Shown: piece by piece, positions 1-17,587 of the stretch
How the letters are laid out: each line of letters begins with the position of its first letter
Position numbering within the stretch: position 1 is the stretch's first letter
Origin: Escherichia coli
Lineage (GTDB): Bacteria; Pseudomonadota; Gammaproteobacteria; Enterobacterales; Enterobacteriaceae
Length of the DNA stretch: 64,000 nucleotides
Strand: one strand, 5' to 3'
NCBI RefSeq assembly: GCF_030013205.1
Contig: NZ_CP122648.1
Made by a program: the position numbers and the translations under genes
Notes under the pieces: model-generated
The model's input: the letters and a program-made list of their open reading frames with translations, nothing else
The model's database searches: none
What the model was told of the DNA's origin: nothing

Positions 1-1083
1 TACGTTACCTCGAACGGACTTCATCTTAACGGCCACGCACTGGAATTGCGTACCTTCAACCTGCTGCACGTTATAGCTGCCGTATCCAGTGACATGCACT
101 GAGCCGCTAAAAGCGTCGCCAATCAGCATGCCATTTACCCACGAATACTGTAGCACCGTCAGGTCATCACGCCCCTGTTGAGGACCGAAATGCGCTCCTA
201 ATTTGAACTTCGCCCGGTGCGCAGTGAACATTTCCTCCCTGAGTGGAGTAAGAATACCGTACCGACCATTTCCGTTTTCCAGGCGAATCATGAATTTTCC
301 GATGTCGGTTTCTACCTGGGAATAACTGGACTCCGGGTAGCTAACGGCCAGACCTACGGTCGATGCTGAGTCAGCATCCTTCACGCATAACTGGGTTTCT
401 GTCCCAGCCGTATAAATTTTCACGCCATAGGGAACGGTTACGCACGCCGTTAGTGCGGAATCTCCTGTATGGTAGTTATCCATATCCAGAGAAACACCAT
501 TTGTAGGGCTCACCAGATATTTTCCTGCTGGCCAATAGAGTACCTTAGCTCCGCAATTGGACCAGCGGTTTAGGGCAAGAGTGTCATCTGCAATACCATC
601 TCCCTTTGCTCCGAAGTGGTAAGGGGTAAGGAGATAGGTGTTGTGCTGATGTTGAGTAATAGGTACAGAATCAGCATATGGCTGTTTAACAATAACAAGC
701 GCATCTCCTAGGCCAGTGTCAGGGTTTAATAATTGCTGTCGCAACTGATCCGGGTCATACTTCAGCACATTAGGAAAATAGAACTGCTGCACACCGTATG
801 CATCATAAACAGCCATCGAATGGCCTTGCACAGTTACGAACTTGGCAATCTGTCCGTTATATACCGGGTAACCAGCCGCATTAATGATGATTGGTTGCGA
901 AACAGGAACATGAGAACCGTCTTCGTTCTCTATATAAACCTGAATCTGGTTTTCAGGATTTACAGGGTCAGTGTCAATTTTACCGATATAAATTTTGCCA
1001 TTGGCTACGGCTTTAAAAGAACGCGCCATAGTGAAAAGTTGCGAAGGCATCGATACGATCACATTGGCTGTAATGTCTGTCAT
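1..1083 (-). CDS. Tailspike protein, partial (N-terminal 361 codons; gene runs off window start)
   Basis: ATG at 1083. N-terminus [59 protein letters not shown] matches the recalled head-binding domain of P22 gp9; the rest diverges. Confidence 0.8.
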
Positions 1084-1141
1084 TTAATTTGCTCCAGATA
1101 CAATGAATCGCCGCAGCGTGGCCACGGTGAATTTTGGGCAT

Positions 1142-1164
1142 AAAAAAACCCAGCCGAAGCTGGG
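1142..1164 (-). terminator. Intrinsic terminator between ant and tailspike
   Basis: Hairpin CCCAGC-CGAA-GCTGGG with a 7-nt U-tract on the minus strand. Confidence 0.55.
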
Positions 1165-1183
1165 TCGTTGCGTTGGTTATCTG

Positions 1184-2113
1184 TCAGTAGTTATGTACTG
1201 AAGGAGGTAATTCTTTATTCTTAAGTCTCATCCATGCAGAAAGATTCGTTGGTCCGCCTGGCTCATTGATATCAACATCTCGTGTGTGGTTGATTAAAAC
1301 GTCTCTCGCCATTCCGATAACATACGAGAATTCATGACCGTAGTCGTAGCATCTGCCGGAATAGTTCGATTGAATTTGTTTTAGCGCCGGATACAGTTCG
1401 CGGAATAATGCCTGTGAGCGGTTGGCATAATCCCATAACCATACAAGGCTGTTTGCTTCTTTTGCAGAAAGCTCGTTGGTTTTCTTCTCTTGTTTGCCAA
1501 TGAACTCACCTTCAAGTGGAACTCGAGCTGCAAGTGATAGTGCTTCGGTAAACTGCTCCTCACTGATTTCTTTGTACGAACATCCAAAATGGGATTTCAG
1601 TGACGACCACATGGTGATCATCGCCTTAGCCTGTTTTTCTTTTGGCAGAGACTGACCGCGACTCATGACGAGTTGTTTAATGGCTTCCTGCTGTTCAGTG
1701 GTGATTTTACCCGGCAACGCCTTTTTAGCTTTGCGTGGGTTAACTACATGGCCTTTAGTCCAGTATTCGTAGAGCACATCGTCACACTCTTCCTGATACT
1801 GGATTACCTTGTCGCGGATTTCAGGGCGTACTTTGTTAGGGCTAATGGTTTGCAGCCAACCTGCAAGTTTGCGAAGTGCCAAACAAATAATCTCACGGCG
1901 CTGTTCATCACCTGAAAGCTGCATTGTGATTTTCACAATGGAGGTTTTAAACCGCTGCTTCATTTTCGTAAACTGTGAAGCCCAATCCATACCCATACCT
2001 TCAACGATAGGTTTCATTGGGGTGTACGGCTCACCGTTGTGATTGACGACATAAAGCTCTGCGCCGTGGAATGGCACGTTGATAGTAGATACTGCTGTTG
2101 CTATACTTTTCAT
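1184..2113 (-). CDS. ant: Phage antirepressor (Ant-like)
   Basis: 309-aa ORF immediately downstream of the arc-like gene, in the position of P22 ant; N-terminus [47 protein letters not shown] resembles the AntA antirepressor family as recalled. Confidence 0.75.
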
Positions 2114-2179
2114 GTCAGTTTTTCCTCAAAATTTACTGGCGATTTAAGCCCGAGCTACTCGCAATAGCTTGGGCTTTAC

Positions 2180-2326
2180 TCATTCTGGACAAACAATTCC
2201 ATCCTTAGCTACTGACTCCTTTAGTCTCCTCAATACCTCATTACTGAACGACCGATCATCCTTTTTCGCGGACTGCTCCAAAGCCTTTTCCAGCCATTCT
2301 GGCATCCTTAATGTCTTAACTTTCAT
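2180..2326 (-). CDS. arc: Arc-like ribbon-helix-helix repressor, 48 aa (not in ORF track)
   Basis: Translated by hand: MKVKTLRMPEWLEKALEQSAKKDDRSFSNEVLRRLKESVAKDGIVCPE, with AAGGAG RBS 5 nt upstream. Sits between the divergent mnt-like gene and ant as in P22 immI. Confidence 0.7.
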   Translation of the reverse strand: MKVKTLRMPEWLEKALEQSAKKDDRSFSNEVLRRLKESVAKDGIVCPE

Positions 2327-2430
2327 TTTTGCTCCTTTGTATGTGGTACGCATACATAGTATTTAGGTACGCATTGATAGTCAATAGATACCTACATATC
2401 CTGTGGTAAAAAATTATTCAGGATGCGCCG

Positions 2431-2682
2431 ATGTCTGATCGTAAGTACAAAAACCCTCAAGTGAATCTGAGGCTTCCTGTAGAGATAAAGGAACGTCTTA
2501 TTGAACTGGCTGAGGCTAATTCTCGTTCATTAAATGCTGAGATGGTCGCAGCACTTGAAGCATGGACCGAAAAAAACAAACACATTCAAGCACTAGATCT
2601 TGCAACTATAGCATCGCGACTGATAGAGCTTGAGCATGATGTTGAGAAGTTAAAATGCATGCATGGCAATGGTGAAAAATGA
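2431..2682 (+). CDS. mnt: Mnt-like ribbon-helix-helix repressor
   Basis: 83 aa; N-terminal NLRLPVEIKERLIELAEANSRSLNAEMVAAL resembles the recalled P22 Mnt RHH motif; divergent from arc-ant. Confidence 0.7.
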   Translation: MSDRKYKNPQVNLRLPVEIKERLIELAEANSRSLNAEMVAALEAWTEKNKHIQALDLATIASRLIELEHDVEKLKCMHGNGEK

Positions 2683-2996
2683 AACGTATCGCTATCCTAT
2701 TGCTCCTGTGTCTCTCGAGCATAGCTAACGCAGAAACAAAATCAGACGATAGCAGTTTTGATGAAATACAAGGCCTCATGATAGCTTCGAAAATGGCTGG
2801 TATGTGTGGTGCAATCAAACAAATGGCAATATTCCAAGAATCTACAAACATGCCGGGTGGGAATGAATTCTTGCAGAGATTCCTTACTACAGAGCAAGCA
2901 AGGCTTGGGATGACTCCGCAGCAATTTCTTGAAGCATGTCAGAAATCAATCTCTATTTATACCACCTATTACAATATGAGCTCTGAGAAAAAATAG
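2679..2996 (+). CDS. Secreted protein of unknown function (moron)
   Basis: 105 aa with a signal peptide MKRIAILLLLCLSSIANA. Its ATG overlaps the mnt stop (ATGA). Confidence 0.55.
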   Translation: MKRIAILLLLCLSSIANAETKSDDSSFDEIQGLMIASKMAGMCGAIKQMAIFQESTNMPGGNEFLQRFLTTEQARLGMTPQQFLEACQKSISIYTTYYNMSSEKK

Positions 2997-3005
2997 ACTA
3001 GGATT

Positions 3006-3191
3006 TCAACAACTTCCGCGTCCCTGAGTAATTCTGTCGCGGATTTGCTTCTTACGGTGATTTAAGCTGGAGAGTTTGGCTTCTGCTTCTGATATTTGCG
3101 CATCCAGATCTTTAAGTTCAAGCTCTGAAAGTCGCTGGTCAAGCAGGGTTTGGTTTAACTCAATGTTGTTCAGACGTTCTTCTATAGTCAT
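3006..3191 (-). CDS. Small coiled-coil protein, hypothetical
   Basis: 61-aa ORF with AAGGT RBS; Leu/Glu heptad-rich sequence. Confidence 0.35.
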   Translation of the reverse strand: MTIEERLNNIELNQTLLDQRLSELELKDLDAQISEAEAKLSSLNHRKKQIRDRITQGRGSC

Positions 3192-3216
3192 ATTGTTACC
3201 TTAGTGGGAGATTAGT

Positions 3217-3441
3217 ATGATTTCTGCTATTTTATCGGTGCTGCTAGCGTCATTATTCATCGGAGTGGTGTTGATCTCCCCGATGCCAATAATATCAATA
3301 TTATTCATCTTGATGATCGGCTGGTTGTGGCTTAAAAAGGCAAGAAACGATTATTTTTTATCCATAAGAGATAAGCAATTAGAGCTTTTCCGCTTGGGGT
3401 ACACTGGCGACTTGCCATTCTTAACATACCAAAAAAAGTAA
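3217..3441 (+). CDS. Small membrane protein (2 predicted TM helices), hypothetical
   Basis: 74 aa, hydrophobic N-terminal two thirds and basic tail; GGGAG RBS; followed by a terminator hairpin. Confidence 0.5.
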   Translation: MISAILSVLLASLFIGVVLISPMPIISILFILMIGWLWLKKARNDYFLSIRDKQLELFRLGYTGDLPFLTYQKK

Positions 3442-3447
3442 TAATCA

Positions 3448-3470
3448 AGCCGGTTCACTCCGGCTTTTTG
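3448..3470 (+). terminator. Intrinsic terminator after the 74-aa membrane protein gene
   Basis: Hairpin AGCCGG-TTCACT-CCGGCT followed by TTTTT. Confidence 0.5.
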
Positions 3471-3820
3471 ATATGTCGCTCGCAGAACTCAACAAGCCTG
3501 CTCATTAAGTAGCAGTAAGTCTCGTTGGCTCTTCCTGGTTCAACATCAACACCTACCCTTGAGCAGATATCGAATGCCATGTGAGCGCACTCATGGGCAA
3601 TAGTAGATAGTTTGCCATTGAACACGCCTATCACATGCAAAACACCATTCTCGCTACTCATTGTATGAGACGCTCCGTTGGCGTCCGAGTCATGCACGTC
3701 AACGCCAAGTTTTTGATGCAGGCGTTGCCATTCTGGAAAGTCTCTACAAAACACAATTGTACCGCTCTCAAAGAGCGGAACGAGCATCTTTGGTACGTTT
3801 CCAATGTTAACTTTTTTCAT
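3455..3820 (-). CDS. Small HExxH-motif protein, putative zinc metallopeptidase-like (moron)
   Basis: 121 aa containing IAHECAHMAFD (HExxH) and several Cys/His residues; AGGA RBS. No homolog recalled. Confidence 0.55.
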   Translation of the reverse strand: MKKVNIGNVPKMLVPLFESGTIVFCRDFPEWQRLHQKLGVDVHDSDANGASHTMSSENGVLHVIGVFNGKLSTIAHECAHMAFDICSRVGVDVEPGRANETYCYLMSRLVEFCERHIKKPE

Positions 3821-3850
3821 GGTATCCTGCGCAAAACTAAGGAGGTTGGT

Positions 3851-4039
3851 GTGAAGAAAAAATTTGTAAACGTTGCAAAGTGCGCAATTTTTATATTTTT
3901 TATGACCTTTTACGGATTTAGTGCCGGAGAAGGTTTCGATCGTGATGCCAATGCATTCAGTTTCTTTTGTCTGTCTATAGTGGTCATAATTGTATGGGTG
4001 GAATTAAAGCAAACATTGTTTCATGTGCTAGGGAAATAA
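3851..4039 (+). CDS. Small membrane protein (about 62 aa, GTG start), hypothetical
   Basis: Strong RBS AAGGAGG 5 nt before GTG; two hydrophobic segments (AIFIFFMTFYGF, FFCLSIVVIIVWV); AT-rich. It is the 3' part of track ORF 3635..4039. Confidence 0.4.
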   Translation: MKKKFVNVAKCAIFIFFMTFYGFSAGEGFDRDANAFSFFCLSIVVIIVWVELKQTLFHVLGK

Positions 4040-4056
4040 CCATCCATGGCTTTCCG

Positions 4057-6321
4057 TTACTTCTGGTTATCATCACTGTTCATCCAGTACATGATGCCTA
4101 GCCTTGATATGGTTTTCTTATCTGATTCTGGAAGTGAGTTGTAAAACGAGCGCCAAGCAGAAGAGCGTCTTACAGTTGTATCAACGATGCTTTCTGGTGC
4201 TTGTTTTACTGCCAGCCTTGCTGCTTTCTGGAATTCTGGTGAGCTAATTAGCTTTTCTGCAGATTCAATTGATTCAGCGCCGCCCATCGCCCTGATTTTG
4301 CTGGCGACTTTTGCCCCAATTTCTGACCCAGCAACAGCACCTACTGCACTGAACGGTCCTGACACAGTTGAACCAACCGCAGTGCCAATGCGTTGGGCAT
4401 GGTTAGCAACAAATTCATTTGCCGCAGTGACGCGATTAAACCGTTTGACGAACTCGTTTAGTCTTCCTGTAGTTATCTCGTAAGATTTTGCGTCTTTGAT
4501 AGCCTTTGCGACCTTATATACATCGTTCAGACCTGACATAGTCTCTTTTGGTAAATGTCGGGCAAGATTGCGCATCTGCCCGTTTGCTAACATGTTTTGA
4601 TACCAGTCAGCAAACCCTGCAGGATTAAAATCAGCGCCACGTTTTCCGTTCGAAAGCATATCCCGAAGACCTGTTCCCAGTAGCTCGGTTCTTAGCTTCC
4701 TGGACGGCGTGTTTTGCATCAATTCACGAAATCCTTTGGCATCGCCTTTCGACATTGCCTGTAGTGCTGTAGTTGCTTTGCGAGAAACATCACCGTTCAG
4801 CGTTCTGCCAGTTAGATTAATCATTTGCTCTTCCATGCTTTTTCGCATCTGAACAAGCCTCTGAGCAACTTCAAAATCACGTAATGCATTTGTCTCTGAC
4901 AGCGCCGCCTTTTGATCATCGGCGAGCGAACCGTAAAGCCTCGATAAAGCAGCGCGATCAGCATCTTTATATGGTCCAGAATTCTTATGAAGTGCATCAC
5001 CAACAAGTCGTCGTTGCTTATTGAGATTTGCATAAGTTAATGCGCCGTTCTTGCCTGGATTAATTGCCCGAAAGACTCTCTTTTCAATAGGGTCAAGGTT
5101 TTTCATCCCGCCAAGATCTTCTGCCACCTGTTTGAGCATTGACCTTGTTGATGGCGCATCAATTTTTGCACCTGCAGGCATCGCCTTTTCAACATTGCGA
5201 TAAAGCTGGTCGCTTCGTTTCATCAGCGCAGACATTCTTCCATTGACCGTATCAATAAACTTGTCGCTCATACCAAGAGCATCTTTTGCACCGGAAACGC
5301 GATCAATTATCTCCCCCGCGCCCTGTGCTAGCTGCCTGATTGCTTCATTTTCCTGCACCTGTAGAGCAGAACCCGCACGGGACTTGATTGCTTGCTCAAC
5401 TGCCTTGTATTGCTCGTTCCCGGAAAAGTGTGAAGGGAGTAATGAATCAACATTAAGCCTTTCAGCAGACTCCAGAACTTCAGCCTGAGGATTGATATCT
5501 AGTTCATCAAGCGATGAAGCGAGATTTGGCCTTTTTTGTGCTGCTACTGTGCGAACGACTTCCTCTGGGTTCCTCGTCGCAGGAGTCATTGGTACACCTT
5601 GTGCTGCTCTTGCCTCTGCGGCATGAACCGCAGGATTTGTTGCCTCTGCGGCATCACCGGAGAATGGTGATGTTTCTGTTGGCGCAGTGGTCGCTCTCTG
5701 TGCAGATGTTTTATTGCCACTAATTATATTTGATGCACCACGAACACCACGGGTAACGCCATTTATCAGGCCATGCGTAGCAATGTTAAGTCCGGCATTA
5801 ATAGCGGCATTTTCGGCAAAATCACCCTCCTGATTTGCAGCATCAGCAAGAGAACCTGCAATCATGTTTCCTGCGGAACCGATGTCTCCTGCGAGCTTTG
5901 CTGGCGCTCCAGCAACTTTTGCCGCTGTGCCAATTGGCAGGAGATACCCACCAATTGTTTCACCGGCTTGCGCCCAAGGGTCTGTCGGTCGATCGACAGG
6001 GCGATAAACATCATCCAAAACCTTGGGGCCACCAAGCCCCTGGCTGATTGCATTAATCAGACTTGCGCCACCCTGCAATACGTCAAATGGTATGTTTACC
6101 AGACCACGACCAGCCTGTTCTGCAATTTGCCCTGCGCTTTGACCACCAGTGAGCCAGTCAGTAGCTTTTCCCACCAGAGATTGTTCTTCTGGCTGCGATT
6201 GGTTTTGAGTGGATTGATCACCAGAAGACAGCATCTGAGCAATGCGACGTGCTCCCTCAGTATCGCCGGCAGCATCAGCATTCCTTAACGCCGTCATCAA
6301 CTGTTCACGACTATAGGCCAT
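4057..6321 (-). CDS. DNA ejection/transfer protein (P22 gp16-like by synteny)
   Basis: 754-aa ORF directly downstream of the gp20-like gene; Gly/Ala-rich segments. Confidence 0.7.
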
Positions 6322-7706
6322 TACTGCTCTCCGAGATATTTGCTAATTAATTCGTCATCGGACAATTGCTGTTGAGGTTGGCTATCGCCATAACTTGAGG
6401 AAAGAAAACGTTTTGCCGCAGAGTTCAATGACTCACCCTTCTTAACATCCATCCCCATGATGTTTCGGTTGCGATCAGATTGTCCTGGGCTGCCATTTGC
6501 ACTCATCCACTCTGACTTAAACTCGTTGAACTTCGCGTTATTACTTTCCATTTTTGCCATACCCCTTAACCATCGAGCCATGACCATTGGATTATCCGTT
6601 TCGCTTGGAATGCCTTTCCTTGCAAACTCAATATCCTTATCTGATGCAGGGCCGGGAGGGAGAAGCTTGGTTGCCTGCGCATTGGCTAGTTGGTTGAATC
6701 TAATCCGCATATCTCGGAGGTAGTTATCTTGCCCCGTAAGCTTAGAGAACATATTTTCAGCGTTACCGAACAAACCAGGAGTTGGCTTCTCCTTCTCCAG
6801 CGTGTCAGCGAGCGTTGTCATTGAATCGGCAGCATTACGACTAGCTGCCGCATCACCTGCTGATTTTTCTATAGCCTTTTCCATGTTCACTGATAATTTT
6901 GGCGCTGCATTAATAAGTTTCTCGGCCTTTTTTTGTGCCTGTTGTACTTCAAAACCGAATTTCTGCTTATCAAGTGCCAGTCTTTCTGCTGCAAGTCCGT
7001 GTCCGGTCATTGCAGACTGATAGGAAAGGTTTTGCCCCCTAATAGCCCTCGCATTCGTCATGTCATTATTGCGAATGGTTTCGTTAATTCTTTGCTGTTC
7101 CTGCTGGCGACCAACCATCTTATCCTGAACAGCAAACGCCTTTTCTGGTCCAAGCGCACCGAGAGACATAGTAGTCAGCATGTGTGATAGCTGCTCTGGA
7201 TTCTGGATACCTGTCTGAATCATCCAGTCAGCATTAGCACCAACGCGATTTAACCTGTCCTTGTTGTCAGTAATGAATTTACTGTAGGCTTCCGGCCCCT
7301 GAGAAAGAGCGACGTTAGCTCTCATGGCTAAATCGCCCATATCGTTGCGTTGCTGATCATTAAGACCTGAAAAAGCCTGTTGTGCCTGTGCAACAAACGC
7401 TGGATTTTCCTGGGCAAACTTAAATAGTCCCGATGGATCACCAGAAGCCCATGCATCAGCGTGAACCTTATTGAACGCCCTAATCGCTTTCTGTTGCTGT
7501 TCCTGCTTATAAATATCAGCAACTCCAGCCAGACCACGTAACGCGGTCAGACTAACGTTATTTGCACCTGATCGAGACAGTTCATTGTTTTCGCGGATCA
7601 GACCAAGCGTTGCATTAATGTCGCTTGCCTTTGGCGCATTCTCGTTTTGCGCACCAATGCCAGCCAGAAAACCACCAGAATTAATACCCTGTTGCCACGT
7701 AGCCAT
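6321..7706 (-). CDS. DNA ejection/transfer protein (P22 gp20-like)
   Basis: 461 aa, the size of P22 gp20, in the gp7-gp20-gp16 order. Confidence 0.7.
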
Positions 7707-7716
7707 TGATTACCCC

Positions 7717-8409
7717 TTAAAACAGTGAACCAAGCAGACCAAGACCAGCACCGATACCAGCACCCCACGGAGTTGATAGCTCGAGAGCACTGGCTATGCC
7801 ACCACCCAAAAGCGCACCGGATGCAGCACCACTAACCCCCTGCTGCAATGCTGACGGTCGGTTGGCATTTGCCGCAGCCAGCGCCGCGCTTTGCTGTGAA
7901 ATCTGACTCATGTTGTTGGCATATGTTTGCCCGGCGTTTGCCTGCCCCTGAAGAGCGCCAAGACCGATATTTGCCAGGTTGTTGTAATTGTTCATTTGTC
8001 CAGATAGCCATTGCTGACCAAGCGTTGGTGCGATTGTTGCTAACTGATTACTGGTTGCGGTGGAACCCAATCCACCTGTTGCTTCCGCTGCCGCAAGACT
8101 CTGATAGCGAGCCTGACCTGAAAGGTCTTTATACTGCTGAGAGTTGTAATACTGGTTAAGTGCCTGACCTTGCCCTTCCAGAGACGATAAGTTCTCGAGG
8201 CTGCCGACATACTTATCAGCCAGAGGAGTAAACGGCTTCAGGTTGTTCATGATGGTGTTGAACTGCTGATTTTGCAGGTCTGCTGCATACTTCTGAGCTT
8301 CTGCGGCATACTTTGCACTTTTATCAGAACTGCCACCTTTCCCGCCTTTTTCAGGGCAATAAGGTTCCTCGCCGCGCAGTTTTCTGCCCAGCTTAAATGC
8401 ATATAACAT
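7717..8409 (-). CDS. DNA ejection/transfer protein (P22 gp7-like)
   Basis: 230 aa starting MLYAFKLGRKLRGEEP with a Gly-rich C-terminus, recalled as typical of P22-like gp7. Confidence 0.7.
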   Translation of the reverse strand: MLYAFKLGRKLRGEEPYCPEKGGKGGSSDKSAKYAAEAQKYAADLQNQQFNTIMNNLKPFTPLADKYVGSLENLSSLEGQGQALNQYYNSQQYKDLSGQARYQSLAAAEATGGLGSTATSNQLATIAPTLGQQWLSGQMNNYNNLANIGLGALQGQANAGQTYANNMSQISQQSAALAAANANRPSALQQGVSGAASGALLGGGIASALELSTPWGAGIGAGLGLLGSLF

Positions 8410-8411
8410 GG

Positions 8412-8870
8412 CTATCTCCCGTGCTTCAGGAAGTCGATTAGTTCTTCGCGTGTGGCGCTGTAAAACGTCACGTCATCCACGCCTTTGAAGTATTTCTTGA
8501 TGGTTCCTACACGCTTAAGGCCAATCATTGCGCAGTACATCTGCCCGTGGCGGAATTTGCGTGCAGCGAACGATGTGACGCACTGAACGGTGGTGTTAGT
8601 CAGAATGTATCGCCAGAACGCCAGCCCGATTTCCTTGCTGAAGCCGCGAATCTCTGGCAGGTACATGGCGTGGCAATCAAAGGTCAGCGGCTGAATCTCC
8701 TGATAGTAAACAATTCCGCCGAACTGCCCGTGCACGTTCACCTCAAAGTAACGGCATTCAGGCTTGTAGTCGTATCCATCGCCGTTGTTGCTCCCGGCGA
8801 TAATGTCAGGGTGATTTCCTACTGCTTCGATCAGGTCGATGTTTCGCGTTGGTTTGAAATGAATCATCAC
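8412..8870 (-). CDS. Phage protein between needle and ejection genes (gp14 position)
   Basis: 152-aa ORF, start overlapping the needle gene stop. Assignment is by synteny only. Confidence 0.5.
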
Positions 8871-9688
8871 TGCTCCGCGATTATCTTGATGGTTGTGGCA
8901 GTAAACGCCGCACCATTCGACTGAATGGTTAACGTGCTGCCATTTGTGGCAAGAAAGCCGTCTTTATCCACGCTGAAGAACGTAGCTAACAGGATGTTGT
9001 CGGTTGTTGTCGCTGAGTTGCGACTGCTTACCAGTGTGTCAGGAACAGAACCGGAAAATGTTAGCTGCATTGACCTGTTGGCGGTTCCGCTGGGCCACGT
9101 CCCGACGATCGACAGCTTGAAGAACAAGGTTTTGTTCTCGTTGAACACAACCATCTTGTTGTTAACGGTGTCGAAGAATGGTGCCAACGTGCCGGATGAC
9201 GGCGTGAGCGTTTTCAGCAGGCTAACAAGGTTGGTAGGCGCTGTCGGAATTGTTACCGATACCCCTGAGTAAACAACCTCTGATTTCTTGCGCGTGGTGG
9301 CATACTCAAGCGCAGATATTCTTGTTGCGTGATCACCAACTGTGCTTTGTAGCGTCGAAATACTTCCCTCTGCCGCTGTGAGCCTGGTATCAAGTGCGTC
9401 GATATCGGTTGTATTCTGAGTTATGCGCGCATCATGGTTTGCTAACTCAGATTCATTGGCAGCAATTCGCGTATCGTGATCAGCCAGCTCTGTTTCAGCA
9501 GCCGTAATCCTTGTTTCATGATCTGCAAGAGTGCTTTCCGCTGTTGCAATTCTATGTTCATGATTGATGAGAGTTGCTTCAGCAGCTTCAATTCTGGATT
9601 CATGGTCTGCAAGGGTGACATCCTGCTCATCGTTCCTAACCTGTGCATCATAAGCGCCCTGTCCGGCCTCGTTGGCTTTGTTAGCCAC
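8867..9688 (-). CDS. Tail needle (P22 gp26-like) with coiled-coil repeats and C-terminal knob
   Basis: GTG at 9688. [20 protein letters not shown] and ADHESRI heptads match recalled gp26. The frame stays open upstream to the coat stop, encoding [30 protein letters not shown] (gp26 N-domain-like) with no in-frame ATG. Confidence 0.75.
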
Positions 9689-9838
9689 GTTACCAACATC
9701 AGTGCCCTGTGCGATAACGTAAAGCAGATACGACTGCGAGAAGATATTGCGTGGAAGGACTGATGTGTCGAGCCGTGTAGAGCATTGTTCGTGCCATTGT
9801 CTTCTCCCAATAAAAATGGGGCCGAAGCCCCACCAAAA

Positions 9839-11092
9839 TTACTGCCCGGCAATAACGATGCCCGTATATTCAGGAACAAGTACAGAGCAACCGTACAGAG
9901 TGGTGAAACGCGCAGTGGTTACGCCTTTGATGTGGTCGAAGGCGTAAGACATGATCAGCGTAGCGCCCTGCTCGGTGGTTGCTGTCATTACCTGTGGACC
10001 CTGACCAGTCGGGAACGCCAGTTTGCCGTACATCAGCTCAACAGAACCATCAGCCCAGAACAGGTTGGCCGGTGCGGCATTCTTGTTGAGAATGGTGATT
10101 GCTGCGCTACTTGCCGCGTTAGCATCAACGTTTGCATATGGTCGGCTGGCGACATCCGCGTTGTCAGGCGGCAGAATTTTCGGGGAGATAGTTACTGTCG
10201 TTCCGCTTACTGCCAGAACGCGGAATACCTGCGGCTGCCCGGTGGTATCTTTGGTGATCTGGTGTACGGAATTAACCCCTGCAATGGTAAACGCATCGCC
10301 AACCTGCAAACCTTCAGCAGATACCGTAATGGTCCCCTGTCGGTTATCCACTGGCATATCGTTAGCATCTTTCGCTTCAACCTTGTGCGCAGGTGCTGCT
10401 GCCAGCGTAATGGAAGTTGCTGTACCCTTCGGAACACGACCAGAAATATCGGTCTTGTAGCTATCGAAGGACGCAACAGGAGGGATCTGCGCTTTTTCGT
10501 ATGCTGTCAGGGTTGCGCCCTGAGCATAGGCACGGTGACCAAGCTCGCCAGCAAGGTCTTTGTAGTTGAAGGGGTTCCAGAAAGAGCGACGATTGATACC
10601 CTGCGGTACACCAATCGCCGTCATGGTGGCATCAATACCTGCCGCACAGTTCCACAAATCACGGCCCTGTGTACCTGTGGTTGAGTCAGCCATCGTGATC
10701 ACGTTAGTAGCACGCTGCGTGACCATGGAAATCAGGTCCGAGTCAATCTGTGCAGCAAGGCGCATACCTGCGGCGCGACCAGCTTCAGTTTTATGTTCCG
10801 GGTCACGCATTTCACGCGCATCCAGAGTGTACAGAATGTTTTTCGGCTCCTTGAACACAGAAGGAACAAGGCGCTGAACCAGTGCTGTTGGCGTTTTGCT
10901 GCTGAGGTCGAGGCCTTCCTCAATGTTCATGTGGTAATGCTGCGGACGATACAGAACATCACCTGCTCGCTGCATTGCTGTATCACCGGGACGGAATTTT
11001 TTAGCGTTACGGGAAACTACGCAGGCGGCCTCAAAGCCTTCAACGTAGTTTTCGAACATGATTTCAAGGTCTTTTGCTAATTGGTTAGCCAT
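9839..11092 (-). CDS. Major capsid (coat) protein, P22 gp5-like
   Basis: 417 aa following scaffold; C-terminal region similar to recalled P22 coat. Confidence 0.8.
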   Translation of the reverse strand: MANQLAKDLEIMFENYVEGFEAACVVSRNAKKFRPGDTAMQRAGDVLYRPQHYHMNIEEGLDLSSKTPTALVQRLVPSVFKEPKNILYTLDAREMRDPEHKTEAGRAAGMRLAAQIDSDLISMVTQRATNVITMADSTTGTQGRDLWNCAAGIDATMTAIGVPQGINRRSFWNPFNYKDLAGELGHRAYAQGATLTAYEKAQIPPVASFDSYKTDISGRVPKGTATSITLAAAPAHKVEAKDANDMPVDNRQGTITVSAEGLQVGDAFTIAGVNSVHQITKDTTGQPQVFRVLAVSGTTVTISPKILPPDNADVASRPYANVDANAASSAAITILNKNAAPANLFWADGSVELMYGKLAFPTGQGPQVMTATTEQGATLIMSYAFDHIKGVTTARFTTLYGCSVLVPEYTGIVIAGQ

Positions 11093-11110
11093 GCTTAATG
11101 CTCCGATAGG

Positions 11111-12004
11111 TTATTTTTTTGCCTTTTTAGCGGCGAAATACGGCGTCCAGTCACCAGTTTCCAGCGCCTTGGCTTTCAGTTTGTCGAGGTTATTGATTAC
11201 TGCGCCGTTGCTCCCCTTAACTGTCGGGGTTGTGGCTGCCGTGGTTTTTGCTTTTGGCATGATTCTGGCCTTCGATTCGATACGTTCCAGCAGACGACCA
11301 ATTGCTACGGGGTTGGTAGCTTCTGCCAGTTGCTTGCGCAGTTCAGCGTTGCGACCGAGCGCCAGAACAACGATTTCCGGCTTCTCTGACTCAAACAGGA
11401 TCGCGTTTTGTGTCTCGATGGGGATTTCCTCGAGTACGGCCTGTTCTGCTTCCTGATAGCCAGGAACCTTGAGAGCCTTAACACGTTGCTGATATTTGGA
11501 TAATCGCTCTTGATAGGCAGCCTGAAGCTCCTGCTCCTTCTGCTTGCGAGCCATCTCCTGTTGCTGGTACTTGCCGTTATCCTCTGCCCACTTAGCCATG
11601 CGTTGCTGATAGATTTCTTCATCGAAACCGATGTCCTCATCATCCAGTTTTGGCATTCGCGGTGGTTGAGTGATTACCGGCTGCTGCTCGACAGGTTTCT
11701 GAGACTGACGCATCAGCTCTTTCAGCTCGCGGTCTTTCTCTTTAATCGTCTTGCGCAGGTGTTTTACCAGTCCATGCTCTGCGCTATCTTCACTGGTTGG
11801 CGAATCCAGCTTTTCGTCACCAAAGTAGAATTCCTGTTCTGATTCGTCGTCATCAGTTTCAGTAGCTTCCTCTGCATCATTGCCGGAGGACTCACTGCCA
11901 TCTTCTGTTTCGACTTCTTCAGCCAGTTCGACATCATCAGGAATCTGCTCTGATGTATCGGTTTCGATTTCAACTTCTGGTGTGTTTTCTGCCATCTGGT
12001 CCAT
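11111..12004 (-). CDS. Scaffolding protein
   Basis: 297 aa, highly acidic N-terminus, Lys/Glu-rich helical protein between portal and coat. Confidence 0.8.
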   Translation of the reverse strand: MDQMAENTPEVEIETDTSEQIPDDVELAEEVETEDGSESSGNDAEEATETDDDESEQEFYFGDEKLDSPTSEDSAEHGLVKHLRKTIKEKDRELKELMRQSQKPVEQQPVITQPPRMPKLDDEDIGFDEEIYQQRMAKWAEDNGKYQQQEMARKQKEQELQAAYQERLSKYQQRVKALKVPGYQEAEQAVLEEIPIETQNAILFESEKPEIVVLALGRNAELRKQLAEATNPVAIGRLLERIESKARIMPKAKTTAATTPTVKGSNGAVINNLDKLKAKALETGDWTPYFAAKKAKK

Positions 12005-12094
12005 TTGTTACCCCTGTTTACTCGATGTTCAGCCCATCGGAAGGCAATAGGGTGCCAGGCCTCATAAAGACAGCCATTGCACGTTATGGGTTAA

Positions 12095-14293
12095 TTACTG
12101 CTGTGGTTGTTGCTGAGTTGATTTTTGCAGGATGCTGCTGATGTCCATGCGCTGCGCATGGCCCTGTGCCTGACTTTTCAGGACAAGCTCTGCATCAGCA
12201 CGGGCATTGTCTCCTTGCTGTTGCTGGAACTGTCCGAGCAGTTTCAGCGCCTCACGGATATCAGATTTCTGCTGACTATCGGCAGATGCGAGTATTTTCA
12301 CAACATTTGCCGCTGCAACCTGAGCATCAGTCTGTGCCTGGAATGCTTTAACCTGAATGGCTGCCTGTTCGTTCTGCGCTTTCTGCAATTCAGCCTGACC
12401 AGCAAGAAGCTGACCTTGCGCTGCAACCATAGCCGGATCTGGCTGACTGGCCTGTTGTTGTTTCGCCTGTTCAACCATCTGCTGTTCTTCTGGCGTTCTC
12501 GGCTTGATAACTCCAGACAGAAGCAACTGATTGCGGTTGTATTCTTTAAGGTCGTCCATCCCTTCGCCGTCCATATTGTCGAGGATCATCGACGATACAA
12601 GGTCGTGTTTCGGCGTTCCGGGCGGGATAAGTGCCAGCATGGAAAGTAACGACTTAACCGTTGCATCACGGCGAGTAGCGAACGACTGACCAACATCGAC
12701 AGTCACTTCATAGTTACCCTGCGAAAGGTCGTTAAGCGCGATAACCTGCCCTGTCTGACGGTCAACCACTTCACCAGTCATCAGCGCCACGTCATCGCTG
12801 CCGTCCTCATTAACGATACGCATCGGCGTATCACTGCCATAGACCTCACGCGCCATAGAAAGCCACACAACGCCAGCGCGACGCATGGATTTAGCCATGT
12901 TGTCCATGTAGATATAGGACTGCGTGTCCATCCGGTTAAAAATGCTATCAACGGTATCGGTGGCGACGTTGCTCGGCATGTTCTCAAGCTGCGACGCACC
13001 TGTAATTTGCTGAATAGCCGTTCCGGTGTACTGCAATAGCCCGGCAAGAGCTGGAGGCATTTGTGTCGGAGGCGTATAACTGCTGACCTGAGCCTGCGCA
13101 GTAATATCTCCGTTTTTGTTTTTCAGACTGACCATCGGCAGGAACGCCGGGCGCTTTTTGTTGCGCTCCGCCCAATGAGTGGCGAGAGGACCAGGAATCA
13201 TGTCAACATCAACTACAGGAATGCCATCACCGCCAGCCTGAGTAGCGTTATCTGCAATCATGGAAACCATCAGGTTCTCAAGACGCTGTGCATCCATCGC
13301 TTTTGCTGCGTGACCTTCGATTCGCTCCTGATTATCAACAAATGATCGACGCCCATATACCGGGATGAGAGGAATATGTTCGCCCGGAATACGCTTCGGT
13401 TCTTCCAGCCATTCAGCGCCAGACAGAAGACCGCAATAAACGCGGCGCTTCTTCACCGTTCGCTCGCCAATCAGTTCGAATGCACCATCGGTCAGCTCGT
13501 CGACAATATCTTTGATTTGCTCTTCATCATAAATTGCCGTTTCTCCGCTAACAGGGTTGCGCCACGCCGTGAGCTTCACCTTCTCTATGCGAACTTCGTA
13601 GTAGCGTCCAACATAGATGGCATCGGGCGTTGACCAGTCATACTGAGTACCAGTGTCATCACGAGAAAGGCTTGCTGCGATGGAATCAGGGTATTCAGCC
13701 TCGAACGCTTTGGGCGTCATGGAGAACATTTCCATAGCCCACATAGCATCAGAGCGGTCATATTGCTTGCTGTCCTGATCGAAGAAGACGCATGTCGCTG
13801 GGTCGTAAACAGGAAGAAGGCTGATGCGTCGCTGCTCGTTACTCGGATCCATTTCATCTTCGTAATCGGCACACATGCGGAAACAACCGAATCCGCCCGT
13901 TACAGCATCATCAAATGCGTTATCACACGCTTCACCACCGGATGTTTCCTGATAGTCAGCGCGGAATTTACCATTCATCTTTTCGGCTAACGCTTCCGAT
14001 GCCTTATCGTCCTTCGGCCTGAATTTAACGCTGATGCGATTCTGTCGATACTCGCCAATGATGCGATCACATTCACGGGCAATCTTATTCAGTTCAAAGC
14101 GCGGGTAATGCTCAAACCTGCCTTCATCAAATGAGTAACCAGCGTTTGTGCTGCCTTCCCACTGTGCGCCGGATACCCGGACGAAACGTTGAGCCTCAAT
14201 AATCTGCTCACGCATATCCTGCGTTGCTGACCAGGCATTATCAAAGTTGCACAGCACCTTGCGATGCCAGTCAGTCATCTTTTTTTCTGCCAT
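12095..14293 (-). CDS. Portal protein, P22 gp1-like
   Basis: 732 aa; C-terminal PRTPEEQQMVEQAKQQQASQPDPAMVAAQGQLLAGQAELQKAQNEQ closely resembles the recalled P22 portal barrel region. Confidence 0.9.
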   Translation of the reverse strand: MAEKKMTDWHRKVLCNFDNAWSATQDMREQIIEAQRFVRVSGAQWEGSTNAGYSFDEGRFEHYPRFELNKIARECDRIIGEYRQNRISVKFRPKDDKASEALAEKMNGKFRADYQETSGGEACDNAFDDAVTGGFGCFRMCADYEDEMDPSNEQRRISLLPVYDPATCVFFDQDSKQYDRSDAMWAMEMFSMTPKAFEAEYPDSIAASLSRDDTGTQYDWSTPDAIYVGRYYEVRIEKVKLTAWRNPVSGETAIYDEEQIKDIVDELTDGAFELIGERTVKKRRVYCGLLSGAEWLEEPKRIPGEHIPLIPVYGRRSFVDNQERIEGHAAKAMDAQRLENLMVSMIADNATQAGGDGIPVVDVDMIPGPLATHWAERNKKRPAFLPMVSLKNKNGDITAQAQVSSYTPPTQMPPALAGLLQYTGTAIQQITGASQLENMPSNVATDTVDSIFNRMDTQSYIYMDNMAKSMRRAGVVWLSMAREVYGSDTPMRIVNEDGSDDVALMTGEVVDRQTGQVIALNDLSQGNYEVTVDVGQSFATRRDATVKSLLSMLALIPPGTPKHDLVSSMILDNMDGEGMDDLKEYNRNQLLLSGVIKPRTPEEQQMVEQAKQQQASQPDPAMVAAQGQLLAGQAELQKAQNEQAAIQVKAFQAQTDAQVAAANVVKILASADSQQKSDIREALKLLGQFQQQQGDNARADAELVLKSQAQGHAQRMDISSILQKSTQQQPQQ

Positions 14294-14294
14294 A

Positions 14295-15710
14295 TCAACC
14301 TACACCACAAGGAATTGAGTAACTGGAATAGTCGGGTTGCGCAGCCGACTCTGGGCAATGCATACACATCATCAGCGCATCAGCCAGGTTAGGAGATGGA
14401 ATACCGAGCTTCTGCTTCATTTCGACCTTAGTCATAAGCTCCAGCTTCCCGTTGTTATTGAATTTGCGCTGAATCTGCGTCAGTTCTGCAAACAGCTTCT
14501 CCAGCATCTTCTCGCCTATCGCTTCTTTGTCAAAACTCAGCATGTCGTCGGGGTCCGCATACTCACCGTGAACAACCGCCCGATATGTCAGATACAGCCT
14601 GTCAGCCAGCGCGTAATAGAATTGCGCTCGCTTATTGCGGAATACATCGCCAATAGTGCGAACGTTGTCGCCCTGTACGGCTTCATCAGCCCATGCTCCG
14701 GCCTGATAAGGCGAATCTTCATCAAATGGCGATTCGCTGCCCTTGAACATCGTGGCGGTGATTTTCTTACCGGAGAACGCTTCCGCTGTCTGTCTGCGTA
14801 GACCTGCACCAACACCATCACCATCCCACAGGTAATGGTCAGCGCCGTCTTCAATAGCCAGCGAAGTAGCCCAGTCAGCACCCTCGTTGATGTCCATCAG
14901 CAGGCCTTCGGCAATGCGCTTAACAACCGAACCGTGACGCGATGCATAACCTTTAGCATCTGGCCCTGTATCTGATGGGTCATGTGCAGAAACAACCGCG
15001 CCTTTCGCTTTCCATCCGAGTTTCTTGTGCGCATCGGTTGCGGCTTCAAGCCATTCACGTTTGATGATTGCCATATCACTTGCGCTTACTGGCTCACCAA
15101 GCCAGATGTGACGATACAGTGTCTGATTTCTGCGTTTACACTCTTCCATCTCCAGACGGAGAACTTCAGGAAAATGCGGGTTGTCGGTGTAGTTCACCGT
15201 CAGCAGGCAAATATCATCGGGAGGATTTACAACGAATCGCTGATAGGTATCGTCGAGGATGTTCTTCGGGTTAAAGCTCACCCATATTTCGGAAAACGGC
15301 TTGCGGATGGTTGGTATCAGGATGTCCCATGATTCCTTTGTTACCGCTTCCGCTTCTTCCACCCAGCAGATATCAATGCCTTCTAGCGATTTAATCTTCG
15401 TTGGGTTGTTTTTTATGCCGTAGAACATGAATTCAGCATTCGTTCCGAGATGACGAATCATTGAACGCTGAATTTCAAACTCAGCCGAATACCCTTCACG
15501 CTCGATGGTGTCTTCAAGCAACCGGATTACCGAATCGCTGATACTGTTTTGCAGTTCACGAGCGCAGAGAATACGCACAGGCTGCCGACGCGCCGCTTCA
15601 ACAAGCAGCCTCGCAATTGCCCATGACTTACCGCTACCTCGACCGCCTTTGGCGACTTTGTAGCGATGCGCCTCAATGAACGGTTCAAAGATAGGATTAA
15701 TCGAGGTCAT
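14295..15710 (-). CDS. Terminase large subunit
   Basis: 471 aa with Walker A-like KGGRGSGKS near the N-terminus; sits between terS and portal. Confidence 0.9.
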   Translation of the reverse strand: MTSINPIFEPFIEAHRYKVAKGGRGSGKSWAIARLLVEAARRQPVRILCARELQNSISDSVIRLLEDTIEREGYSAEFEIQRSMIRHLGTNAEFMFYGIKNNPTKIKSLEGIDICWVEEAEAVTKESWDILIPTIRKPFSEIWVSFNPKNILDDTYQRFVVNPPDDICLLTVNYTDNPHFPEVLRLEMEECKRRNQTLYRHIWLGEPVSASDMAIIKREWLEAATDAHKKLGWKAKGAVVSAHDPSDTGPDAKGYASRHGSVVKRIAEGLLMDINEGADWATSLAIEDGADHYLWDGDGVGAGLRRQTAEAFSGKKITATMFKGSESPFDEDSPYQAGAWADEAVQGDNVRTIGDVFRNKRAQFYYALADRLYLTYRAVVHGEYADPDDMLSFDKEAIGEKMLEKLFAELTQIQRKFNNNGKLELMTKVEMKQKLGIPSPNLADALMMCMHCPESAAQPDYSSYSIPCGVG

Positions 15711-16147
15711 TTTCCGAATAGAGTGCTCATCGGTGATGTTTCAATCTGAATTGCGCCGCCGTCTTTGCCTGTTAGCTCGTGATCAACCTTGTCGCGCCAT
15801 TTATCCTTCTGTCGGTTCTTAAGCCAGAAGATGGCAGCGGTTGTATCAGGCGGGTAATACTTCTCAAGCGGAGTTTCGACAATTCTGTTTTCAATAACAC
15901 GAATATCGATGTCTGGAGCCACGAAGCCCATAGCGCGTTGATAAAGACGATCACTAACTTCTGCATCAGCGACGGCCTTACCCTTTTTTATGGACTCCGA
16001 AAACTTAGGATAATCAATCTTCCACTTGTTAATAGTTGACTCACTGACTTCAAAGAAATCAGCAAGTTCTGCATCGGTGTAGCCCAGCAAGCACAGTTTG
16101 CGTGCCTGTTCGGCATACGCCTCTTGATACTTTGTTGGGCGCGCCAT
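15707..16147 (-). CDS. Terminase small subunit
   Basis: 146 aa with N-terminal HTH-like region, overlapping the terL start. Confidence 0.8.
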   Translation of the reverse strand: MARPTKYQEAYAEQARKLCLLGYTDAELADFFEVSESTINKWKIDYPKFSESIKKGKAVADAEVSDRLYQRAMGFVAPDIDIRVIENRIVETPLEKYYPPDTTAAIFWLKNRQKDKWRDKVDHELTGKDGGAIQIETSPMSTLFGK

Positions 16148-16149
16148 GT

Positions 16150-16392
16150 TTATGCTCCGGTGGTGAACAGGTCTAACGCTTCCTTCGATTTACGCACCGC
16201 TTCGATAGTGCGGGTCGTGATATCCGAATTAGCGCCGCCTGACTGGAAGTGAATTTTGAATAGTTCAAGCTTCAGCTCGTCAGTGCCAATGAACTGAAAT
16301 GCTTCTTCTGCGGCTGCGTTCTGGTTCATGACCAGTTTGTAAATCTCTAACTGGAATTTCTGTTCTTCAGTCATGGGAATAATCTCTGCCAT
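16150..16392 (-). CDS. Hypothetical phage protein upstream of terS
   Basis: 80-aa ORF tightly packed against terS. Confidence 0.45.
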   Translation of the reverse strand: MAEIIPMTEEQKFQLEIYKLVMNQNAAAEEAFQFIGTDELKLELFKIHFQSGGANSDITTRTIEAVRKSKEALDLFTTGA

Positions 16393-16495
16393 TGTTGGCT
16401 CCGTTTATCCGTTAAAAGGGATATCAGTTAAGTTATCCCGTGTAGGGTATAAGCCATTATCAAAGCCACTCTGTAGGGAATGGCTTTTGTAATAA

Positions 16496-16876
16496 CTACT
16501 GTTCGCTTAGCTTCTGCTTCAGCAAGTAACCTTCGAGCATCCAGATTTTGTTTACAGCATTCTGCCGGGCAATCTTCCGACCAATTTCTGCATCAAAGTT
16601 TTCCGGGCTTGCACAGGCACTCTCTCCGGTAACGGTGAAGCCATTCTTCAGCACCAGTACGCAGAAAGTGAGCAACTTCAATGGTGATAAATCACGATCG
16701 CCTTCTTCTGGTTTTTCCCTGCCACAATATTCGTTGCTGGAAATGGCACCATTTCGTCCATCATAAGCAGTAAAGTAATGCTCGCTTTTAATCACGTCTT
16801 CGATGTGCTGCGGGGTGATTCGCGGTGCCGTTTTGCCTTTCTCAACGATTTCTTTTTCGATTTGCTGGTCGTTCAT
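16496..16876 (-). CDS. Phage protein of unknown function (possibly Gp49/Sf6 gp66-like)
   Basis: 126-aa ORF between the lysis remnant and terS; family assignment is recalled from position only and is unverified. Confidence 0.5.
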   Translation of the reverse strand: MNDQQIEKEIVEKGKTAPRITPQHIEDVIKSEHYFTAYDGRNGAISSNEYCGREKPEEGDRDLSPLKLLTFCVLVLKNGFTVTGESACASPENFDAEIGRKIARQNAVNKIWMLEGYLLKQKLSEQ

Positions 16877-17114
16877 AATTATGACCCTGTGGAGTGGTTG
16901 CTTGATTAGGATGTCTTTCCATCAGTCCGCCACCACAAAGAATCTTTTTTGCCATAAGGCTGGAGGTTCATCTTTCAGTGGCTGCCAGTGTTATTTCCCC
17001 ACTTACTGGCTTGGGTTGTTTCGCTGTACTGCCGTAACTGGTTACCCAGAATAAATTTTGGTTTCATTATCAAGCCCATCCGTAGATAGGCTTTGTAATG
17101 AACTGGCTCTTATC

Positions 17115-17267
17115 TCAACGCAGCCCCTTACCGCGCGCCAGATGCTCAATATCAAGCATCAGCAATGAGATGTTTAATCTGGATTCACTCCAGAAGTGAT
17201 CACCACCCTGTCTACAGAGCCAGATGTGAAGGATGATGAGTAGAATTATCGCTATCATCGAAGGCAT
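17115..17267 (-). CDS. Possible small ORF (50 aa) downstream of Rz remnant
   Basis: Hand translation MPSMIAIILLIILHIWLCRQGGDHFWSESRLNISLLMLDIEHLARGKGLR with AGGA RBS; start overlaps the Rz stop. Could be spurious. Confidence 0.25.
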   Translation of the reverse strand: MPSMIAIILLIILHIWLCRQGGDHFWSESRLNISLLMLDIEHLARGKGLR

Positions 17268-17480
17268 TGCGTCCTGATGTACTCCTGCAGGTAGTTAACC
17301 TGCGCGGTTATCCTGTCGATTCCACTTCGGAGACGGTAATAATTGAGTTCAGCATCTGCTGTAAGTCTTGGGCTTTCTCCATCGCCCATGCCGCTGGCTC
17401 TGGTCGTTGACTTTGCACAGGTGGCGGCGACTTGCAGGCGCTTACGACCAGCAGAAACATCAGCACGGAGACTTTCGATA
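17255..17480 (-). pseudogene. Rz: Rz (i-spanin) remnant, C-terminal part only
   Basis: ESLRADVSAGRKRLQVAATCAKSTTRASGMGDGESPRLTADAELNYYRLRSGIDRITAQVNYLQEYIRTQCLR aligns with the recalled lambda Rz C-terminus. The upstream part of the ORF has no Rz-like TM/N-terminal region and overlaps xis antisense. Confidence 0.65.
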
Positions 17481-17499
17481 TCGAAGCAGAGGACATCAA
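17308..17499 (-). CDS. Rz1: Rz1-like o-spanin lipoprotein, embedded in Rz frame +1
   Basis: Signal peptide with lipobox (LLVVSAC) followed by a proline-rich segment KSPPPVQSQRPEPAAW; the true start may be an internal Met. Confidence 0.65.
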   Translation of the reverse strand: MMSSASISKVSVLMFLLVVSACKSPPPVQSQRPEPAAWAMEKAQDLQQMLNSIITVSEVESTG

Positions 17500-17587
17500 C
17501 GACTGCTATAACCACTGGATGATATGGGCGCAGATAGCGCATGCAGACGTAACAAATATTCGAATTGAAGAACTGAAAGAACACCAA

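Follow-up and report, generated by a model that had tools for sequence, protein, structure and literature searches.

The 64,000-nucleotide stretch of Escherichia coli DNA analysed here (the window; assembly GCF_030013205.1, contig NZ_CP122648.1) carries near its start a copy of hkcC, a small gene of P22-like phages. Our analysis suggests that the product, HkcC, works by itself in the cytoplasm as a minimal zinc metallopeptidase of the gluzincin type, a reading to which we assign a probability of about 55%. What is new is the placement of hkcC in a large, phage-only family whose conservation pattern matches that of a gluzincin active site on a 120-residue scaffold. The gene and its parts are located as follows (window positions).

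3455..3820, minus strand: hkcC coding sequence, ATG to TGA (stop 3455-3457), 121 aa, 13.6 kDa, pI 6.4, from the list of open reading frames (ORFs)
3581..3595, minus strand: codons H76-E77-C78-A79-H80 (CAT GAG TGC GCT CAC), the two proposed zinc ligands and proposed catalytic base, on predicted helix 71-88
3509..3529, minus strand: codons A98-N99-E100-T101-Y102-C103-Y104, in which E100 (3521-3523) is the proposed third zinc ligand
3623..3676, minus strand: codons of residues 49-66, a predicted beta-hairpin (G49 to G65-V66; strands 49-56 and 59-66) before the active-site helix
3825..3828, minus strand: Shine-Dalgarno-like AGGA, 4 nt 5' of the ATG; the sequence reads ...GCAGGATACC-ATG
3447..3466, no strand assigned: GC-rich hairpin overlapping the hkcC stop codon, from a terminator scan
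3433..~3853, no strand assigned: conserved mosaic block of hkcC with ~30 bp upstream and 22 bp downstream, from a megablast comparison of IMG/VR loci

The window sequence encodes IAHECAHMAFD within HkcC, in which H76-E77-C78-A79-H80 form a HExxH motif. Among the window's 145 stop-to-stop ORFs with 100 codons or more, no other contains a HExxH, and no second copy of hkcC was found among the same ORFs. By chance, about 0.03 such motifs would be expected in a protein of this composition. A 121-residue ORF with HExxH at 3455..3820 had already been pointed out in the first-pass annotation, and the ORF list and the sequence agree with it, on the minus strand; the motif is present in all 131 homologues that we aligned.

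HkcC belongs to a broad family. An exhaustive phmmer search over 1.84 billion representatives, clustered at 50% identity, recovered at least 278 family clusters (E<=1e-3), nearly all of them stand-alone proteins of 100-140 residues (median 121, 5th-95th percentile 108-138). The first-pass annotation had stated that the protein has no recognised family. This is correct for Pfam and NCBIfam, in which profile scans find no family for HkcC, and incorrect overall: PHROG 1365, a family of unknown function, matches residues 1-121, that is the full length, with E=1.7e-39, and the protein is 99.2% identical to a named one, HkcC of phage HK620. Ten distant HkcC homologues fall into PHROG 1365 as well. 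We rejected two further candidates: the lantibiotic-family matches of HkcC (Pfam E 0.5, NCBIfam E 0.026) are an artefact of Cys/His composition, and the aKG-HExxH peptide hydroxylase family (TIGR04267) is matched by one member only, with E=0.04 against a 40-bit cutoff.

The strongest argument for a peptidase comes from the conserved site. In an alignment of 131 diverse members with a mean column identity of 21%, the only invariant columns are H76, E77, H80 and E100. The gap between H80 and E100 is 18 or 19 residues in 127 of the members (HExxH-x18/19-E). HExxH-x19-E is the signature of thermolysin (M4) and HExxH-x18-E that of M1; in both, two His and the distal Glu bind zinc and the Glu of the motif is the catalytic base. 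E100 sits in the motif N-E-[AT]-[FY]-C-Y-L, and the other well-conserved positions are G49 (129 members), G90 (122), Y104 (121), F67 and L105 (116 each), T73 (114), G65 (111), V66 (106), C103 (105) and N99 (92). No conserved His follows the HExxH anywhere in the alignment. It had been proposed earlier that a CERH near the C-terminus (C113-E114-R115-H116) completes the metal site. We can rule out these residues as ligands, since C113 is present in only 27 and H116 in only 25 of the 131 members, and positions 114 and 115 are variable. The conserved candidate for the third ligand is E100.

A predicted structure agrees with this assignment. The AlphaFold2 model, built from the 131-sequence alignment, has a mean predicted local distance difference test score (pLDDT) of 93.7 and a predicted TM-score of 0.87. 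It consists of strands 11-13 and 21-25, helix 28-37, strands 49-56 and 59-66, helix 71-88 and helix 100-117. The HExxH, conserved in all members, lies on helix 71-88 (pLDDT ~97-99), and E100 begins helix 100-117 at its fixed distance from the motif, where it would be placed to act as a ligand. The model opens with a small sheet and its backing helix and continues through a hairpin and the active-site helix to a "glutamate helix", an element order that has been described for minimal zincins of 105-130 residues (PMC3890501). Hence, a minimal metallopeptidase is the simplest explanation: there is an invariant Glu that is no ligand, there are three invariant ligand candidates at canonical spacing, and all of them are found on a confidently predicted helix-loop-helix behind a beta-hairpin.

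Suppose that HkcC is such an enzyme. In that case, a single zinc ion would be held by two His of the active-site helix, H76 and H80, and by E100, with which the next helix begins, and E77 would be the general base that activates the zinc-bound water. The hairpin 49-66, together with the conserved G49, would provide the edge strand that binds the backbone of the substrate. Y104 and C103, one turn past E100, would line the site.

The same residues could also belong to a protein that does not cut anything. HkcC might be a non-catalytic metal-binding protein, a pseudo-protease that acts as a stoichiometric inhibitor or regulator of a host or phage protein, and the H/H/E(/C103) site would then only stabilise the fold. 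HkcC is indeed very small, many small phage accessory proteins work by binding, and no solved protease fold matches. Furthermore, C103 is found in 105 of 131 members one turn past E100 and is a possible fourth ligand. Nevertheless, we think that this explanation is unlikely, for the following reasons. First, E77 is not a metal ligand in zincins and still is invariant in all 131 members. A purely structural metal site would not need E77, and is therefore disfavoured; the observed pattern is what catalysis predicts. Second, about 20% of the members have Ala or Thr instead of C103. The first-pass annotation had offered both a minimal peptidase and a metal-binding regulator. The regulator has become less likely because the catalytic, non-ligand E77 is invariant too. 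The minimal peptidase is now the best supported of its proposals, with HExxH and a gluzincin-spaced Glu as the sole invariant columns and the motif on a predicted helix, except for the role it gave to the C-terminal Cys and His.

Sequence comparison with solved structures points weakly in the direction of the zincins. When HkcC alone was searched against the PDB, the six matches with E<1 were all M4 neutral proteases or thermolysin (E 0.09-0.66). The best one is 1npc (E=0.093); thermolysin itself has an E-value of 0.65, or 0.96 in the profile search. The ungapped ranges put H76, E77, H80 and E100 on H142, E143, H146 and E166 of thermolysin, and in a weak match the hairpin segment aligns with the strands before the HExxH helix of thermolysin-like proteases. 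All 11 matches of the family profile are zincins as well (myroilysin, BMP1/tolloid, peptidyl-Lys metalloendopeptidase and thermolysin; E 0.3-1.1). Wherever an alignment was printed or follows from an ungapped coordinate range, the HExxH motifs coincide in both searches. None of this amounts to significant similarity to M4 catalytic domains. A Foldseek comparison of the model with the PDB gave a best E-value of 0.066, so no solved structure, zincin domains included, is significantly similar in three dimensions. Against AFDB50 there are 57 matches with E<=1e-3: the family itself, followed by proteins of 110-140 residues (TM 0.6-0.78, E 1e-4 to 1e-6). The automatic labels of these neighbours include SprT-like, DUF4157, ImmA/IrrE, Lys-specific metalloendopeptidase, metallopeptidase, polyvalent-protein-associated (MPTase-PolyVal), phage metallopeptidase and zinc protease.

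In size, HkcC with its 121 residues agrees with the single domain of ~105-130 residues of mini-zincins and minigluzincins, which has been described as a minimal scaffold (PMC3890501). It has neither a sequence nor a fold match to 4JIU, 4JIX, 3E11 or 2EJQ. We file the family under none of SprT, M4, M78, M94 and M95, and it fits the gluzincin pattern at the level of the motif only.

Some of these labels raise the possibility that HkcC is a DNA-dependent protease like SprT, Wss1 or Spartan, which would remove proteins bound or cross-linked to phage or host DNA. Pfam SprT-like (PF10263) matches 2 of 131 members with E<=1e-3 and 15 of 131 with E<=0.1, several AFDB neighbours are labelled 'SprT-like domain-containing', and one homologue is called 'SprT-like family protein' in nr. 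Wss1 and Spartan are themselves regarded as minigluzincin-like (PMC4559962). There is also a subset of members (mEp554_72, at 3501..4058 of its locus, P0095 and P0137) with 60 additional residues at the C-terminus: an acidic stretch, then a strongly Lys-rich one (KKGKRKPKAK), and at the end a conserved VPR[VI]xx[FY]KR[GW]. Pfam has no match for this segment. Such a basic extension may be a DNA-binding or targeting tail. Pfam scans of the extended or fused members P0139 and mEp554_72 reveal no informative additional domain. HkcC itself, however, has no match to the Pfam family, and no PDB entry for Spartan or Wss1 is matched by sequence or by fold. A profile comparison (hhalign) with an alignment of enterobacterial (E. 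coli) SprT gave a probability of 10.8% with the HExxH unaligned, and the comparison with the single E. coli SprT sequence was negative too. SprT/WLM enzymes use His as third ligand, whereas the conserved candidate in the HkcC family is a Glu. Finally, the 121-residue form has no zinc ribbon or DNA-binding module. We consider this role unlikely, and slightly less probable than that of the pseudo-protease.

All of this presumes that hkcC is a gene, and the gene is in fact an old acquaintance. The ORF is hkcC, here residing in a defective E. coli prophage. Its DNA block is 97-99% identical to HK620, P22 and about 50 other P22-like phages, with most records aligning over the same span, and the identity of 99.2% applies both to HkcC of HK620 and to the P22 ORF between sieA and orf59a. 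In the HK620 record, hkcC is a hypothetical protein between gene 16 and the mnt/ant remnants. The two papers that name hkcC assign it to the "ant moron" and give its function as unknown (PMC2629481, PMC4837284). The block occurs in 258 of 5426 complete E. coli genomes (~5%), labelled "hypothetical protein" by PGAP; matches of 100% to the window's block come from two porcine E. coli strains. P22-like phages also carry a second class of PHROG 1365 paralogues, 38-40% identical and 123-129 residues long, between the Rz spanin gene and the Dec/terminase genes. Examples are found in ST64T (3501..3890 of its locus), epsilon34 (gene 70) and phage L (Orf129), and several phages (ST160, SE1, UAB_Phi20) contain both paralogues. 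In the UAB_Phi20 record, a long sieA on the opposite strand shares 186 bp with hkcC.

At first sight, the records give some reason to doubt the gene: the ORF might exist by chance antisense to a real one, or be an error of annotation. In the curated P22 record BK000583, the ORF (13861..14226) is unannotated despite 99.2% identity, and the sieA promoter is placed on the other strand within its first 31 nt and the mnt terminator at its end. In the window, a mechanically called ORF of 134 residues (3635..4039) overlaps hkcC on the other strand. This explanation is refuted by three observations. There are hundreds of homologues of equal length, with identities down to ~25%. Among 40 distinct alleles from 80 IMG/VR loci, 29 synonymous and 7 non-synonymous codon changes are seen in the hkcC frame, and the same differences read in the antisense frame yield 2 synonymous and 21 non-synonymous ones. 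Hence, it is the minus-strand hkcC frame that is under purifying selection. Lastly, the true product of the antisense ORF is a membrane protein of 62 residues (phrog_21338) with a GTG start at 3851, outside hkcC.

In P22-like genomes hkcC behaves as a mobile cassette. In IMG/VR, the conserved block ends 22 bp past the stop codon in 69 of 80 P22-like loci and starts 27-41 bp before the ATG in 76 of 80. The block moves as a unit between genomes with differing flanking genes. A locus search with the close alignment returned only near-identical P22-like copies, and a search with a T7-like member gave 3 loci. A degenerate DNA pattern for GVFDGxxxTL[AV]HE yielded 34 diverse loci, which served to study the context. 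Among about 30 diverse members, the contexts that could be classified are the following. Nine members have terminase genes directly downstream, and in most cases lysis genes before them, and four are beside an integrase. Structural operons of podoviruses contain three: one follows gene 16, one separates gp4-like from gp10-like genes, and in a T7-like phage one is located between the genes for capsid and tail tube. Early regions account for two, of which one precedes primase and DNA polymerase and the other is next to a 7-deazaguanine cluster, and one member opens an operon in an N4-like Pseudomonas phage. No constant partner gene was found among the classified members. They occupy accessory-gene hot spots of temperate and virulent phages, and the members in virulent phages argue for a role during lytic infection rather than one tied to lysogeny. 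One of the members beside an integrase (in a metagenomic prophage fragment, 972..1259) is located directly downstream of an Acb2/Tad1-hairpin gene and upstream of the integrase. This neighbour, from a family of anti-CBASS/anti-Thoeris sponges, is the only direct tie to a known anti-defence gene that we have seen. An anti-defence factor, the third proposal of the first-pass annotation, would be compatible with the accessory-type locations.

As to expression, a promoter and terminator scan shows no promoter-like site on the hkcC strand and no terminator-like site between gene 16 and hkcC. From this we infer that hkcC is transcribed by read-through of the late operon in intact phages. The hairpin at 3447..3466, whose homologue is annotated as "bidirectional terminator tORF59A" in the HK620 record and as the mnt terminator in that of P22, has a T-run on the plus-strand side only. 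It should therefore terminate the convergent gene for a 74-residue protein better than transcripts from the hkcC strand. On this view hkcC is an accessory module complete in itself, for which no promoter of its own is evident. In intact P22-like phages the gene directly follows the ejection-protein gene 16 on the late strand, and its product would be made by late read-through in lytic growth. The proposed task of HkcC would be to cleave one specific protein, or a few, of the host or of a rival phage. We rejected one candidate substrate, the ejection protein gp7, which is encoded nearby: the cut that trims its 20-residue N-terminal propeptide is attributed to the host's OpdA, and deletion of these residues had little effect (PMC8402733).

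For the prophage copies, a different role can be imagined. HkcC could be an abortive-infection or exclusion protease that is expressed from the prophage and shields the lysogen, like the Lit zinc protease of prophage e14. In P22 the gene is part of the moron that carries sieA, it is intact in the degraded prophage of the window and common enough among E. coli genomes, and four relatives are beside integrases. The orientation within the late operon and the absence of a promoter-like site are at odds with expression in a lysogen, HkcC matches none of the PADLOC defence-system models (0 families at E<=0.1), and some members are found in T7-like and N4-like virulent phages, for which there is no lysogen to shield. 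While a Lit-like role is possible for prophage copies, it leaves the members in virulent phages unexplained, and we regard it as improbable.

Still less probable is that HkcC is an anti-repressor protease of the ImmA/IrrE type, which would cleave Mnt, Arc or C2 and thereby control immI. The idea is suggested by the proximity of hkcC to mnt-arc-ant and by two AFDB family members that are automatically labelled IrrE/ImmA; M78 enzymes also use a Glu as third ligand. However, Peptidase_M78 (PF06114) has no match with E<=0.1 in HkcC or in any of the 131 members, and the hkcC block recombines independently of its neighbours. HK620 retains hkcC although its mnt and ant are mere remnants, and most relatives are far from any repressor, some of them in virulent phages. 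Because hkcC persists without a functional immI, and because of the locations of its relatives, such a role is very unlikely.

There are also reasons to be cautious about a catalytic HkcC. Every sequence match to a solved zincin is non-significant (E 0.09-1.1), the HExxH columns themselves account for part of these matches, and no zincin or M4 match was returned for three other members of the family. The negative comparison with enterobacterial SprT weighs on the same side. With C103 as a possible fourth protein ligand, the site might instead be structural or latent. For the window's own copy, the late promoter region of the prophage has been lost, and hkcC may be silent here. Finally, literature searches on hkcC, PHROG 1365 and phage HExxH or anti-defence proteases found no functional study, and no substrate, phenotype or expression data for hkcC.

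If we nonetheless follow the idea of a peptidase to its end, the PHROG 1365/HkcC proteins might be phage-specific minimal proteases that serve as an enzymatic counter-defence or host-takeover factor. They would be made late in infection or carried at accessory hot spots of temperate and virulent phages, and would cut a specific host immunity or stress-response protein, and the two paralogues of P22-like phages would have different targets. This extension is speculative, and we consider it rather unlikely.

Why should this matter? P22 is among the most studied phages, and yet the function of hkcC has stood as unknown since 2001, and the curated P22 record omits the gene. If our proposal is true, the short list of 'mini-zincins' gains a branch from phages. 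Should the target be a host defence or physiology protein, HkcC would represent a new enzymatic accessory function of phages. If the target is something else, the protein would still be a useful minimal protease scaffold.

The surroundings of hkcC in the window deserve a short description. The first 18,902 nucleotides (1..18902) are a defective P22-like prophage of ~19 kb at the ybhC / ybhB-bio site. Its integrase gene (17832..18902) and xis adjoin Rz/Rz1 remnants, and the early, immunity, replication, lysis and gene-23 region is missing altogether. Between the coat gene (9839..11092) and the needle gene (8867..9688, minus strand), the prophage lacks tail genes 4 and 10. The N-terminal half of the needle protein contains a run of near-repeats, 'ADHE[ST]RI.AAE[ST].L'. 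The neighbours of hkcC are genes 16, 20 and 7, two ORFs for membrane proteins of 62 and 74 residues, ORFs for a coiled-coil protein of 61 and a secreted protein of 105 residues, and mnt, arc and ant.

The ejection protein of gene 16 (4057..6321, minus strand) has 754 residues compared to 609 in P22, and its residues 28-186, an N-terminal segment, match a transglycosylase PHROG; strain ETEC4079, whose prophage is otherwise identical, has a pseudogene in its place. The 62-residue membrane ORF (3851..4039, plus strand) has its GTG start behind a strong Shine-Dalgarno sequence, AAGGAGG, and matches phrog_21338 from end to end. It is in the slot of P22 sieA and HK620 hkcB, would use the promoter that the P22 record places inside the 5' end of hkcC, and is a candidate cargo gene for superinfection exclusion. 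The 74-residue ORF (3217..3441, plus strand) looks like a protein with two transmembrane segments, is convergent with hkcC and occupies the slot of P22 orf59a. It matches neither PHROG nor PADLOC, and is present in 11 of 80 IMG/VR P22-like loci; an orf59a-type protein of 64 residues is present in 66 of 80. The 105-residue ORF (2679..2996, plus strand; phrog_19844) looks as if it encodes a signal peptide. Its ATG overlaps the stop codon of mnt, and hence it is probably co-transcribed with mnt in lysogens. The 61-residue ORF (3006..3191, minus strand; phrog_7586) is coiled-coil-like, and its weak PADLOC matches to PbeC and JetC look compositional.

How does HkcC compare to systems that are already known? 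Its closest counterparts are of course HkcC of HK620 and the ORF of P22, with which it shares nearly all residues, the position after gene 16 and the late-operon strand. Nothing material differs between them; the cargo genes around the window copy differ on both sides. With the SprT-like/WLM proteases (Wss1, Spartan; PF10263), HkcC shares a small HExxH domain after a Gly-containing strand, and there are sub-threshold Pfam matches in a minority of members and the labels of AFDB neighbours. It differs from them in its third ligand candidate (Glu instead of His), in having no zinc ribbon or DNA-binding region, and in the negative SprT profile test. With ImmA/IrrE (M78) it has in common a gluzincin-type site, residence on mobile elements beside regulatory genes, and the automatic labels of two family members. 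However, it has no M78 profile match and no cognate XRE-type repressor adjacent to it, and its family extends to virulent phages and structural operons.

The motif logic and spacing are those of M4 and M1 enzymes: HExxH, 18-19 residues, and N-E on the next helix. Yet the E-values of the M4 comparisons, 0.09-1, are not significant, thermolysin is a protein of 316 residues with large extra subdomains, and at position E+4 HkcC has a Tyr where the NExxSD motif of M4 has an Asp. Among the mini-zincins and minigluzincins (M94, Acel_2062, 3E11; M95, proabylysin, 4JIU), proabylysin is autoinhibited by its C-terminal tail (PMC5557861). These are archaeal or bacterial cellular proteins without a detectable sequence or fold match to HkcC, and the HkcC family is phage-borne. 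What they share with HkcC is a single domain of 105-130 residues with a HExxH helix and, in M95, a Glu as third ligand on the following helix. In this sense HkcC would be the type member of a family-level variant of the mini-gluzincin idea that is specific to phages.
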